Notes: generated by a model from the letters alone, not told the origin. 64,000 nucleotides of DNA from a bacterium (GCA_003576755.1 QEVT01000002.1:346-64345); one strand, 5' to 3'. Numbered from the stretch's first letter, positions 6,306 through 9,958 are shown. Numbers and translations are program-made.

Positions 6306-8528
6306 GTGGGCTTCCCTATGCCTAGTCTCCTCACCCCCCTCGACCACCTCCTCGCCGAGGCCGTTCAGTCGTTCCCCGCCGCCCGCGGCACCGACGGCGC
6401 CGCCGACGCGTTCCACGGCCTCCACGTCCCCGCCGCCGAGGTCGAGCGCCTGCTCGCGCGATCGGAGGGCTCGGCCGGGGCGACGCAGGGGCGGCCGAAC
6501 GGGAAATCCCAGCCCGGGATCTTCGCGCGCCTTCTATCGACGCCCAAGCCCGCGGCGGAGCGCCCCGCCGTCGACCTGGCGGGCGACGACCCGGCGCTGG
6601 GGCGCCTGGCGCGGGCGTTCGGGCTGTCGGCGTTCGACCTCAACGTCGTCGTCCTGGCCCTCGCCGTCGAGGTCGACCTCAAGTACGAGCGTGTCTTCGG
6701 CTACCTGCAGGACGACCTCACGCGCCGTCGTCCGACGGTCGACCTTGCGCTCGCCCTGCTCGGCGGCGACGCCGACGACCGCTTGGCGAACCGCGCCGCC
6801 TTTGACGCGGATGCCGCGCTCCTCCGCCACAACCTCGTCGCGCTCTTCCCCGACCCCCACGACGTCGAGCCCTCGCTGCTCAACCACTACCTCAAGCTCG
6901 ATGACCGAGTCGTCGACCATATCCTGGGCGAGGTCAGCATCGACGCGCGCATCCGGACCGCCGTGAAGCTGGTCGAGCCGGCGGTCGCGTGGCCGGAGTT
7001 GGGGATCGACGACGATACGAAGGATCGATTGGCGCTGCTTGCGTTGGGCCAACATGCGCGCGCCGGCGAGGGCGGGCCGTCCAGCCTCGTCATCCAGCTC
7101 CACGGGCCCGATGGCGCCGGGAAGCGCGCGGTCGCCGAGGCGCTGTGCCACTGCGCCGAGACCTGGCTGCTCGTGATCGGTTTGGCTGACCTGCTGCGAG
7201 TCGACCTCCCGCCTGAGACCGCCATCCGGCTGGCGTTCCGCGAGGCGGTGCTCCTTCAGACGCCGCTGTACCTGGACGGGTTGGACGCACTCCTGGCCGA
7301 CGACGATCGCGCTCGCGCCGCCTTGCGCGTGCTCATCGAGCAGCTCGAGCAGATCTCCGGCGTGACCTTTCTGGCTGGGCGGTCGGCTTGGGCACCGTCC
7401 GGCGCGCTGCGCGCCAAGCCCATCGTGAGCATCGCCGTGTCGGTTCCGGGCTATGCGGCGCGCGATGCGTTATGGCGGGAGGAGCTGGGCGATATCGAGG
7501 CCCCCGGCGTCGATTCCGACGTCGACGTCGGTCACCTGGCCGGGCAGTTCCGCTTTGGCGCAGCGCAGATCCGCGATGCTGTGGCGACGGCGCGCAACCG
7601 AGCGCTGTGGCGCGACCCGGCAAGCGGAAGGGTGGCGATGGACGACCTGCTCGCCGCGGGCCGGATGCACTCGCACCACAAGCTCGGCACCATCGCGACC
7701 CACATCCAGCCCGTCTACGGCTGGGACGACATCGTCTTGCCAGCCGACCAACTCCGTCAGCTCCGCGAGATCTGCCATGCCGTGCGCTATCGCGCCAAGG
7801 TCTACACCGACTGGGGCTTCGACCGCAAGCTGGCGCGCGGCAAAGGCGTCAACGCGCTCTTCGCCGGTCCGAGCGGCACCGGCAAGACCATGGCCGCGGA
7901 GATCATCGCGCGCGACCTGGGCCTGGACCTCTTCAAGATCGACCTTTCCAGCGTCGTCAGCAAGTACATCGGCGAGACCGAGAAGAACCTCGAACGGATC
8001 TTCCGCGAGGCTCAGACCAGCAATGCCATCCTGTTCTTCGACGAAGCCGACGCCCTCTTCGGCAAGCGTTCGGAGGTCAAGGATGCCCACGACCGCTACG
8101 CCAACATCGAGATCTCCTACCTGCTCCAGCGCATGGAAGAGTACGACGGTGTCGTGATCCTGGCCACCAACGTCAAGAAGAACCTAGATGACGCGTTCGT
8201 CCGGCGCCTCCAGTACACCGTCGACTTTCCCTTCCCTGAGGAGGCTGACCGGCTGCGCATCTGGCGGAAGATCTGGCCGGACGCGATGCCGCGCGACGGC
8301 GACATGGACCTGGCGTTTGCGGCGCGGCAGTTCCGCTTGACGGGCGGCAACATCAAGAACGTCGCCGTCGCCGCGGCGTTCCTCGGCGCGGCCGAAGGCG
8401 ACACGGTCCGGATGGCGCACCTCATCCACGCGACGCGGCGCGAGTACCAGAAGATGGGCAAGCTGTGCACCGAGGTGGAGTTCGGGCCGTACATGCACGT
8501 CTTGGAAGCGGAAGGGGGTGGCGCGTGA
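6306..8528 (+). CDS. eCIS AAA+ ATPase (Afp15/Pvc15-like)
   Basis: C-terminal AAA+ module with Walker A GPSGTGKTMAAE and Walker B ILFFDEADALFGKR, followed by GVVILATNVKKNLDDAFVRRL. A long N-terminal extension precedes it, as in CIS ATPases. The start is GTG at 6306 or ATG at 6318. Confidence 0.9.
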   Translation: MGFPMPSLLTPLDHLLAEAVQSFPAARGTDGAADAFHGLHVPAAEVERLLARSEGSAGATQGRPNGKSQPGIFARLLSTPKPAAERPAVDLAGDDPALGRLARAFGLSAFDLNVVVLALAVEVDLKYERVFGYLQDDLTRRRPTVDLALALLGGDADDRLANRAAFDADAALLRHNLVALFPDPHDVEPSLLNHYLKLDDRVVDHILGEVSIDARIRTAVKLVEPAVAWPELGIDDDTKDRLALLALGQHARAGEGGPSSLVIQLHGPDGAGKRAVAEALCHCAETWLLVIGLADLLRVDLPPETAIRLAFREAVLLQTPLYLDGLDALLADDDRARAALRVLIEQLEQISGVTFLAGRSAWAPSGALRAKPIVSIAVSVPGYAARDALWREELGDIEAPGVDSDVDVGHLAGQFRFGAAQIRDAVATARNRALWRDPASGRVAMDDLLAAGRMHSHHKLGTIATHIQPVYGWDDIVLPADQLRQLREICHAVRYRAKVYTDWGFDRKLARGKGVNALFAGPSGTGKTMAAEIIARDLGLDLFKIDLSSVVSKYIGETEKNLERIFREAQTSNAILFFDEADALFGKRSEVKDAHDRYANIEISYLLQRMEEYDGVVILATNVKKNLDDAFVRRLQYTVDFPFPEEADRLRIWRKIWPDAMPRDGDMDLAFAARQFRLTGGNIKNVAVAAAFLGAAEGDTVRMAHLIHATRREYQKMGKLCTEVEFGPYMHVLEAEGGGA

Positions 8529-9958
8529 AGCGGAGGATTCGACGGCGCATCCAGCGCAAGCCCGCGCGGCCGAGCCCGAAGCACGTGACCGTCCTCGATC
8601 GCCCGTCCGAGAGAGCGCCAGAACACGCTCCCATGGCCAGGCTGCAGCGAGCGCTGGGCAACCAGGCCATGGGACGCGTCGTTCAGGCCAAGCTGAAGGT
8701 CGGCCCGCCCGGCGACCGCCACGAGCAGGAAGCCGATCGCATGGCGGCGTCGGTGATGACCGGGAGCGCGCCAGTCCAGCGTCAGGCGATGGCGGACCCC
8801 GAATCACAGTCGGTCCAGGCCAAGGAATCGCCCGGGGGCGCGACCCGGGTGTCGCCGCGCTTCGAGCGCCACCTCGGCTCGCTGCGGGGCGGCGGCAAGC
8901 CCCTACCGGGGCCGACCCGCGCGTTCTTCGAGCCGCGCTTCGGGCAACGGTTCGGCGACGTCCGGGTGCACACGGACGGCTCGGCCGCCGAGCTCGCACG
9001 GTCGGTGAATGCCCGCGCGTTTACGGTCGGGCGCGACATCGTGTTCGGGGCGGGCGAGTATGCACCCCGAACCGACGGCGGCAAGCGGCTGCTCGCACAC
9101 GAGCTGACGCACGTGGTGCAGCAGGGAGATGGGCGGTTGAGGCGGATGCCGGCAGTGCCGTCTGAGGCTGCTCCAGCACGGCCCACACTGCGGCGCGGCG
9201 ATCGCGGCATGTGGGTCAAGGAGCTTCAGGTAATGCTCAACACCGCCGACCTCGTGCCCTTGAAGTCACTGGTCCCGGATGGTGACTTCGGCGCAGCGAC
9301 CGAGCTCCACGTTGCCGAGTTTCAACGACGAAGGGGGCTACAAGACGACGGGATCGTTGGCGCGAACACGTGGCATGCTCTGGATCATCCGGCCGCGCCG
9401 GCGGATCTTGGCCCCATCGTCGATTGGCATCGTCCGACCGCACCTGAGGCCGCCGGCGGTACCAGCGAGCCGCCGTGGATCAGTGTTGCCAGAGCTGAGA
9501 TCGGCATGAAGGAGATCAAGGGCGAGAAGCACAACCCCCGCATTGTCGAGTACCTCAAGACGACGGGGAGCTGGTGGTCGGCCGATGAGACGCCTTGGTG
9601 TTCCGGGTTCGTCAACTGGGTCATGGCGAAAGCCGGCTATGCCGGAACGGGAAGCGCCAAAGCCGTATCGTGGTTGGATTGGGGCACGACGGTCGATCAA
9701 CCGGCTCTAGGGGCGATCGGCGTGATCTCATACGGCGGTGGAAAAGGCCATGTCGGGTTCGTGGTGGGCAAGCAAGGCGGCAATGTGCTCCTTCTAGGGG
9801 GCAACCAGAGCGATGAAGTGAAGATCAGTACCTTCGCGGCCGACAGGTTCAGCGTGTTCGCCTTCCCCAATGGCTATGTCGTACCGACTTCTGCCTTCTC
9901 GCTTCGCGACTCGAAGAAGGACTTTGGCAAGCCCGTGGGATTCGAGGGCACCCGGTAG
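8525..9958 (+). CDS. DUF4157 + PG_binding_1 + CHAP/NlpC-P60-like (TIGR02594-type) protein; candidate peptidoglycan-hydrolase effector
   Basis: GTG at 8525 overlaps the ATPase TGA (GTGA). DUF4157 motifs are LQRALGNQAMG, HEQEADRMA, FFEPRFGQRFGDVRVHTD and LLAHELTHVVQQG. A PG-binding repeat follows (LRRGDRGMWVKELQ...DGDFGAATELHVAEFQRRRGLQDDGIVGANTW). The C-terminal hydrolase has WCSGFVNW ... GHVGFVVG. Confidence 0.85.
   Translation: MKRRIRRRIQRKPARPSPKHVTVLDRPSERAPEHAPMARLQRALGNQAMGRVVQAKLKVGPPGDRHEQEADRMAASVMTGSAPVQRQAMADPESQSVQAKESPGGATRVSPRFERHLGSLRGGGKPLPGPTRAFFEPRFGQRFGDVRVHTDGSAAELARSVNARAFTVGRDIVFGAGEYAPRTDGGKRLLAHELTHVVQQGDGRLRRMPAVPSEAAPARPTLRRGDRGMWVKELQVMLNTADLVPLKSLVPDGDFGAATELHVAEFQRRRGLQDDGIVGANTWHALDHPAAPADLGPIVDWHRPTAPEAAGGTSEPPWISVARAEIGMKEIKGEKHNPRIVEYLKTTGSWWSADETPWCSGFVNWVMAKAGYAGTGSAKAVSWLDWGTTVDQPALGAIGVISYGGGKGHVGFVVGKQGGNVLLLGGNQSDEVKISTFAADRFSVFAFPNGYVVPTSAFSLRDSKKDFGKPVGFEGTR

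Follow-up and report, generated by a model that had tools for sequence, protein, structure and literature searches.

The DUF4157 domain is a published core and toxin marker of extracellular contractile injection systems (eCIS) (PMC8213781, PMC11297309). In AlgoCIS of Algoriphagus machipongonensis, two DUF4157 proteins, Cgo1 (498 aa) and Cgo2 (1228 aa), fill the tube lumen (Xu et al. 2022, PMC8894135), and their loading needs the disordered N-terminal domain and the AAA+ ATPase Alg15, with DUF4157 itself dispensable (PROCIS preprint, bioRxiv 10.64898/2026.05.27.728243). The haloarchaeon Halogeometricum also shows secretion of DUF4157 proteins that depends on a contractile injection system (CIS) (PMC11566945). 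Wall-degrading eCIS payloads, EAT10 and pesticin, have already been reported, with toxicity that depends on the periplasm (Geller et al. 2021, PMC8213781; Danov et al. 2024, PMC11297309). In type VI secretion systems (T6SS), effectors of Stenotrophomonas end in a TIGR02594 domain, as in the VgrG4-linked LysM-TIGR02594 protein of S. maltophilia (PMC13055248) and V5 of S. rhizophila (PMC13340143). Here we analyze P0001, a protein encoded in an eCIS operon on a 64,000-nucleotide stretch of bacterial DNA (GCA_003576755.1 QEVT01000002.1:346-64345; hereafter the window, with a G+C content of ~66%), which joins DUF4157 to a wall-binding module and a TIGR02594 enzyme domain. We consider it reasonably likely that P0001 is an eCIS cargo that is loaded by the neighboring ATPase and degrades the peptidoglycan of a target bacterium.

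The locus resembles AlgoCIS in having a small and a large cargo-type protein, each with a disordered N-terminal domain, DUF4157 and a differing C-terminal domain, together with a cluster-encoded AAA+ ATPase. It differs in that the genes for the large protein, P0003, and for P0001 flank the ATPase gene at the 5′ end of the operon, with the small one coupled to the ATPase, and in that the producer is uncultured and without Omp85, its system being a predicted one. Whereas the C-terminal domain of Cgo1 is a predicted metalloprotease, P0001 ends in a wall-binding domain and an NlpC/P60-CHAP enzyme. Like eCIS-associated toxins (EATs), P0001 has DUF4157 at the N-terminal side, a putative toxin domain at the C-terminal side and a gene within an eCIS operon, although the EAT10 peptidoglycan hydrolase lacks DUF4157. 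With the TIGR02594 effectors of Stenotrophomonas and with Tae-type amidase effectors of the T6SS it has in common a wall-binding module, the catalytic family and, as we propose, contractile delivery into the wall compartment of a rival; those effectors, however, are loaded by VgrG and have an adjacent immunity gene, in contrast to the eCIS leader, DUF4157 and ATPase of P0001. The gene and its parts lie in the window as follows.

8525-9958, + strand: gene for P0001 (477 aa; leader, DUF4157, PG_binding_1 and TIGR02594/CHAP), with a GTG start that overlaps the ATPase stop
8510-8521, + strand: Shine-Dalgarno-like GGAAGGGGGTGG, within the 3′ end of the ATPase gene and ending 3 nt before GTG 8525
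8525-8758, + strand: N-terminal leader, residues 1-78, with LQRALGNQA from residue 40 and the EQEADR helix at 65-79; presumed loading signal
8900-9133, + strand: DUF4157/eCIS_core (PF13699), residues 126-203, E 5.2e-34, 116.7 bits against a cutoff of 22
9215-9382, + strand: PG_binding_1 (PF01471), residues 231-286, E 1.4e-12, 48 bits against a cutoff of 23
9473-9859, + strand: cysteine peptidase/amidase domain of the NlpC/P60-CHAP type (TIGR02594), residues 317-445, scoring 148.1 bits (cutoff 70.55)
9860-9955, + strand: conserved C-terminal tail, residues 446-477 (32 residues), beyond the NCBIfam model and ending in Thr-Arg

Domains were assigned from Pfam and NCBIfam profile scores relative to the curated cutoffs, from an AlphaFold2 model, from Foldseek and from a sequence search of the PDB. 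The reading frame is uninterrupted across 8525-9958 and yields a product of 477 aa, and the profile searches bore out the architecture of DUF4157, PG_binding_1 and a TIGR02594-like domain that a first-pass annotation of this DNA had proposed. The AlphaFold2 model, with a mean predicted local distance difference test (pLDDT) score of 80.7, has a disordered N-terminus followed by three confident domains. DUF4157 carries its HExxH motif as HELTH (residues 192-196). Sequence matches of PG_binding_1 in the PDB include phiKZ gp144, and by Foldseek this middle domain resembles SleC, SleB and phiKZ gp144, with a root-mean-square deviation of 1-2.5 Å over ~68 residues. The DUF4157 segment had no meaningful match among PDB sequences at E up to 10, and the VgrG2b metallopeptidase 6H56 was absent from the top 50 Foldseek matches of the whole P0001 model, leaving the relation between DUF4157 and 6H56 given in the literature unconfirmed by either search.

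The TIGR02594 match spans model positions 1-130 of 132, and a Pfam CHAP match covers residues 352-427 (E 1.1e-7). By Foldseek, the best match of the catalytic domain is the NlpC/P60 domain of the C. difficile autolysin Acd24020 (7cfl_B, TM score 0.66), followed by MepS, SagA and a CHAP structure solved by nuclear magnetic resonance. WCSGFVNW and GHVGFVVG, which the first-pass annotation had pointed out, hold catalytic residues: Cys359 (codon 9599-9601) in the former and His409 (codon 9749-9751) in the latter, together with Asn427 and Gln428 in a GGNQ motif, are unchanged in 18 homologs and in 107 representative homologs. As modeled, the catalytic domain is a papain-like NlpC/P60 fold with Cys, His and a polar third residue, and its predicted activity is hydrolysis of peptidoglycan stem-peptide or amide bonds. 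The C-terminal tail, which has high model confidence, ends in TR in 87 of the 107 closest representatives, always 46-55 residues past GGNQ, and could bind substrate or extend as far as the active site.

Searched for exhaustively, the enzyme domain turned up in 8630 representative proteins, in which it is nearly always C-terminal. Its companions among the 107 closest were PG_binding_1 (24), SH3_3 (12), PG_binding_3 (10), LysM (9), DUF4157 (6), pesticin (6), RHS repeats (3), PAAR (1) and a VgrG/gp5-type spike (1). When the TIGR02594 part of P0001 was compared with phage families, the match to phrog_1259, 'baseplate hub subunit and tail lysozyme', reached E 2.5e-38, with the domain corresponding to the C-terminal part of that family, and endolysins matched at 1e-10. 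P0001 is like the phrog_1259 tail lysozymes and phiKZ gp144 (PDB 3bkh), which match its TIGR02594 and PG_binding_1 domains, respectively, and also have no signal peptide. Unlike phage hub lysozymes and endolysins, it has no hub or spike fused to it, adds a leader and DUF4157, and does not lie beside the holin-like gene of its operon.

The features that would mark P0001 as cargo lie at its N-terminus and in the two genes upstream.

6306-8528, + strand: two-ring AAA+ ATPase P0002, 740 aa; PF22977 winged-helix E 2.8e-39, PF00004 E 1.1e-33
1537-6246, + strand: large DUF4157 protein P0003, putative first cargo, 1569 aa; PF13699 E 6.7e-28

Residues 1-38 of P0001 are basic (12 K+R, 3 D+E, 6 P), and hydropathy and charge analysis found no hydrophobic or transmembrane segment and no signal peptide in the leader. 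Residues 10-15, 17-36 and 44-54 have pLDDT below 50 and are predicted to be disordered. P0003 shares this leader, which is 63% identical over 40 residues at an equal offset; the DUF4157 cores of the two proteins are 49% identical, and otherwise they differ. DUF4157 genes number exactly two in the 4.4-Mb metagenome-assembled genome (82% complete), one on each side of the ATPase gene, and its single TIGR02594 gene is that of P0001. The cargo-loader-cargo layout described by the first-pass annotation is present, with P0003 and P0001 bracketing the ATPase. The best solved relatives of P0002 are Cdc48/p97 (VCP) unfoldases, and P0002 is a candidate cargo loader of the Pvc15/Afp15/Alg15 type. P0001 has two sequence hallmarks of Cgo1/Cgo2-type cargo, namely a place in an eCIS cluster with an AAA+ loader and a shared, disordered, non-Sec N-terminal domain.

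The stop and start codons of the ATPase and P0001 genes overlap in GTGA, as had been noted before, with the start GTG (8525-8527) sharing bases with the stop TGA (8526-8528). Whether P0001 is translationally coupled to the ATPase depends on which start codon is chosen, and public gene calls begin the protein at ATG 8633 (P0004, 441 aa), 36 codons downstream of GTG 8525. Several lines of evidence favor the GTG. In 27 independently called DUF4157 homologs, the leader motif LQ[RQ]xxGN has a median position of 41 (10th-75th percentile 36-61, a few homologs at 79); it falls at residue 40 of P0001 if translation starts at GTG 8525 and at residue 4 if it starts at ATG 8633, and in the paralog P0003 it stands at residue 42 after a similarly basic stretch. 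G+C at third codon positions (GC3) is 0.81 over 8525-8632, a coding-type value, compared with 0.57 immediately upstream in the same frame. In the equivalent slot of a same-genus genome (G001), the orthologous gene has an ATG that shares bases with the TGA of the ATPase (TGATG), with a strong Shine-Dalgarno sequence, GGAGGAGG, ahead of it, and the N-terminus of that ortholog aligns end to end with that of P0001 read from the GTG. An in-frame GTG at 8465 was ruled out as the start, since a gene beginning there would share 64 nt with the ATPase gene and GC3 is no more than 0.57 upstream of 8510. The overlap, the Shine-Dalgarno-like GGAAGGGGGTGG and the G001 equivalent thus speak for the coupling that the first-pass annotation had claimed, and the public start at ATG 8633 would not give it; from these comparisons, the coupling of the ATPase and P0001 is probably real and conserved. 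Over 8525-8632, the public calls probably omit 36 codons of basic leader.

Based on these features, we propose that P0001 would be transcribed with the operon and that ribosomes ending on the ATPase gene would restart at the overlapping GTG, a coupled translation that would produce loader and cargo together. The Cdc48-like AAA+ ATPase would recognize P0001 by its disordered, basic leader (about residues 1-78, LQRxxGNQA), unfold the protein and thread it into the tube lumen during assembly, as for AlgoCIS Cgo1/Cgo2 and Alg15. Lysis of the producer would free the particles, and contraction against a neighboring bacterium would expel the cargo into or under its wall. There PG_binding_1 would anchor P0001 to murein and the Cys359-His409-Asn427 center would cut stem-peptide or amide bonds, so that the target is weakened or lysed. 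DUF4157, a zincin-like module, would serve as an optional accessory and not as the loading signal.

The sister species bears on this last step. The G001 ortholog P0270 (L032 11072-12103, - strand, contig C1) has retained leader, PG_binding_1 and an enzyme of 72% identity, along with the overlap with the ATPase stop, yet it is without the DUF4157 core, missing about residues 73-217 of P0001. A protein from an independent Logan contig, P0007, has the same DUF4157-less junction and is 99% identical. In P0270 what is left of the EQEADR helix has degenerated (KHGADR) and LQRAVGN is intact, which points to a DUF4157-bearing ancestor with a later deletion. These alignments suggest that DUF4157 was lost by deletion in the G001 lineage, and also that the EQEADR helix works with DUF4157 and the LQR motif does not, in agreement with the deletion experiments in AlgoCIS.

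Relatives further away show which parts of the arrangement are general. DUF4157 proteins occur in 22 of 61 related genomes, and the PG_binding_1-CHAP end is found in this genus only. In a same-class genome this slot, upstream of Pvc16 and sheath genes, is taken by a DUF4157 protein whose C-terminus was not recognized, and the cargos there have no ATPase between them. What is conserved is therefore the slot and not the payload, which is the pattern expected of effectors, and the cargo-loader-cargo bracket is a feature of the lineage that is not general among relatives. The bracket recurs in G001 with one extra gene between the large cargo and the ATPase. Two metagenomic homologs (L002, L003) have the same three-domain layout within other eCIS loci, beside tube and spike genes. 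A relative with DUF4157, pesticin, SH3 and CHAP is an orphan, and upstream of the DUF4157-less relatives P0008 and P0010, both on short contigs, lie genes for Calx-beta and SpaA-like surface proteins, not ATPases.

Two observations on the related genomes stand apart. The extra gene in G001 (L032 14337-16715, - strand) encodes 792 aa with Endonuclease_NS, trypsin and lamin-tail (LTD) domains, without DUF4157 or an LQR leader, and may be either another effector or an insertion unrelated to the system. At least six DUF4157 genes with open frames of 670-1627 aa lie within ~25 kb of a same-class genome (G043, contig C6, about 37.8-61.1 kb), and this cluster looks like a large cargo array.

By Pfam, the window holds a complete eCIS operon that runs on the + strand from 1537 to about 31600, and downstream of P0001 it includes the following genes.

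10114-10995, + strand: Pvc16_N tail-terminator/cap-type gene (PF14065, E 1.9e-27), the first structural gene after the cargo
11005-13152, + strand: sheath gene (Pfam)
13168-13593, + strand: tube gene (Pfam)
15091-15774, + strand: LysM tube initiator (Pfam)
17120-17764, + strand: spike (Pfam)
17777-18073, + strand: PAAR (Pfam)
+ strand: two Baseplate_J genes, an NHL-repeat protein of gpI type, and fiber-like genes (Pfam)
30720-31601, + strand: holin-like last gene P0124, 293 aa; PF09682 E 2.6e-8, with phrog_2609 and phrog_6918 (holin)

P0124 has a single transmembrane helix at about residues 24-49, followed by ~240 residues of helical repeats. P0003 opens with its basic leader (LQRTLGNQA) and continues with DUF4157 (217-292) and a long low-complexity/coiled region; hydropathy places hydrophobic, transmembrane-like helices at residues 1141-1225. 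Its homology to the G001 counterpart P0272 (L032 16726-19953, - strand) stops at residue 1259, the last ~310 residues are unrelated, and no family was recognized in this C-terminal part of P0003. Judged by this comparison, the C-terminal domain is apparently swapped between species in a Tme-like layout, and Tme-type effectors act at or beyond the membrane (PMC11126660).

A scan of the cargo-ATPase-cargo block found no promoter or terminator signals on the + strand. A perfect sigma-70 consensus (TTGACA-16 nt-TATAAT) occurs on the - strand at 1011-1038, upstream of a divergent ParA/MinD-like gene (178-942, - strand) and within the 0.6-kb gap that precedes the eCIS operon. GC3 is ~0.87 in the leader and DUF4157 of P0001 and about 0.71-0.76 in the PG_binding_1-CHAP part. 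We discounted this drop as a mark of recent acquisition of the PG_binding_1-CHAP part, as the adjoining Pvc16 and sheath genes are equally low.

A search that matched Omp85/BamA in 7 of 7 outer-membrane-bearing control genomes found no such gene in the 4.4-Mb, 82%-complete genome, and the producer appears to be without an outer membrane. A nearly identical version of the stretch 8000-10200 (sampled-word share 0.96-1.00) is present in 13 studies from 2018-2025, in a total of at least 19 sequencing runs of bioreactors, activated sludge or wastewater, which indicates a wide distribution of the organism and its eCIS in engineered sludge systems.

The first-pass annotation had offered two roles for P0001. 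The role of payload gains support from the shared leader and DUF4157, the AlgoCIS precedent, the tail-lysozyme match and the RHS, PAAR and VgrG-like fusions of the enzyme domain, and for wall remodeling or release the analysis brought no positive evidence of that kind. The RNA-labeled sludge runs yielded mismatch-free contigs over the ATPase-cargo junction (8152-8676, 8024-8612) and over the gap between cargo and Pvc16 (9799-10420), which suggests that ATPase, cargo and Pvc16 are co-transcribed, although most of the library labels are guessed, depth is low and DNA carry-over is possible. This caveat is one of several points that weigh against a loaded antibacterial cargo. Loading, delivery, enzymatic activity and target of P0001 are inferred. 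T6SS wall-hydrolase effectors are normally paired with an adjacent immunity gene. No immunity gene adjoins P0001, where a 155-bp gap leads to Pvc16, the ATPase lies upstream and the only open reading frames (ORFs) in the flanks are ones that overlap the flanking genes (the search covered these flanks and not the rest of the genome). Such a gene may be dispensable for a cytoplasmic enzyme that has no signal peptide and whose producer is bound to lyse. Finally, a wall-binding and a catalytic domain without a signal peptide form the layout of a holin-dependent endolysin, and the operon ends in a holin-like gene, with no other lysin found among the operon ORFs with Pfam matches.

These last points bear on the alternative that survives best, unlikely though we judge it to be, in which P0001 would stay cytoplasmic until the holin-like P0124 opened the membrane and would then degrade the wall of the producer so that particles escape. 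Its leader and DUF4157 would be evolutionary baggage or would keep the enzyme inactive until lysis. The layout is that of phiKZ gp144 and the AP3 endolysin, P0124 with its one transmembrane helix closes the operon, and no second wall hydrolase stands among the ORFs that gave Pfam matches. Both genomes with the PG_binding_1-CHAP gene (2 of 2) also have an operon holin-like gene, which is syntenic in G001; with no Omp85/BamA in the genome, the wall would be the main barrier; and a contribution of eCIS toxins to lysis was proposed by Geller et al. (PMC8213781). P0124, however, lies 20.8 kb downstream with eCIS structural genes in between, and the holin-endolysin adjacency of a lysis cassette is absent. 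The leader is common with the other cargo, and the ATPase coupling is seen in two species. Homologs of P0124 (33-36% identity) occur in three same-order genomes without this enzyme, two of which are without any DUF4157 gene, so that this type of gene is not restricted to the present eCIS. In most related eCIS the slot holds DUF4157 proteins that end differently, so the enzyme does not belong to the conserved machinery, and among PHROG families virion tail lysozymes resemble it far more strongly than endolysins do.

Release and attack might also be combined, with surplus unloaded P0001 lysing the producer once P0124 opens the membrane and loaded copies attacking neighbors. We regard such a dual role as doubtful too; the optional DUF4157 could then keep the enzyme inactive or hold it in the cytoplasm until that time.

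The tail-lysozyme match raises the thought, in our view rather improbable, that P0001 is a penetration aid, riding at or in the tube as a phage baseplate-hub lysozyme does and opening only a local hole in the murein through which the tube and the large membrane-active cargo reach the target membrane. Besides that best PHROG match, a VgrG/gp5-type spike is fused to one close relative of the domain, and P0003, with its transmembrane-like helices and variable C-terminal domain, is like Tme-type effectors (PMC11126660). In P0001 itself, however, the enzyme is unfused to spike, PAAR or hub and has its own leader and wall-binding domain, as in free effectors, and T6SS effectors with this domain are regarded as toxins with immunity partners. 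The difference from a toxin role is in any case one of degree only, and both may coexist.

SalCis19 of the Salmonella salamae CIS is likewise a peptidoglycan hydrolase encoded in a CIS cluster and is proposed to remodel the wall of the producer (bioRxiv 10.1101/2025.06.01.657177). It has a signal sequence, transmembrane helices and a SleL-like amidase fold and anchors the baseplate (bioRxiv 10.1101/2025.06.01.657177), whereas P0001 is soluble and leader-tagged, with an NlpC/P60 fold and DUF4157. That P0001 is an ordinary autolysin or wall-remodeling enzyme of the producer, unconnected with the particle, is very improbable: NlpC/P60 and PG_binding_1 are common in housekeeping autolysins, but P0001 has no signal peptide or transmembrane segment and could not reach the wall unaided, DUF4157 is highly specific to eCIS (PMC8213781), the synteny and coupling with the ATPase are conserved, and this is the sole TIGR02594 gene of the genome.

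As a likely ATPase-loaded antibacterial cargo, P0001 is a new domain combination inside a known class of DUF4157-headed or wall-hydrolase eCIS cargos. No description of a DUF4157, PG_binding_1 and TIGR02594 fusion was found in the literature searched. DUF4157-headed effectors and antibacterial eCIS toxins have been in the literature since 2021, when the EAT10 peptidoglycan hydrolase and pesticin domains were reported (PMC8213781), and the first-pass view that an antibacterial eCIS payload would be unusual is outdated. Leader-dependent eCIS loading has likewise become known since 2022-2026 (PMC8894135; bioRxiv 10.64898/2026.05.27.728243). The sister-species ortholog that has no DUF4157 core and keeps the leader, coupling and enzyme is a modest addition. 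Public gene calls probably drop 36 codons of the leader, and automated surveys would thereby miss the presumed loading signal.

For the family, P0001 extends the known DUF4157-headed eCIS cargos by one whose enzymatic payload can be clearly annotated. This favors seeing many environmental eCIS as weapons against bacteria, and the producer of P0001 is common in wastewater bioreactors. The natural pair of orthologs with and without DUF4157 agrees with the AlgoCIS result that loading is signaled by the leader and not by DUF4157, and a link between the synthesis of cargo and loader is suggested by the stop/start overlap with the ATPase gene, which is conserved. Both the DUF4157-less ortholog pair and the overlap should be of use to those who engineer or study eCIS loading.

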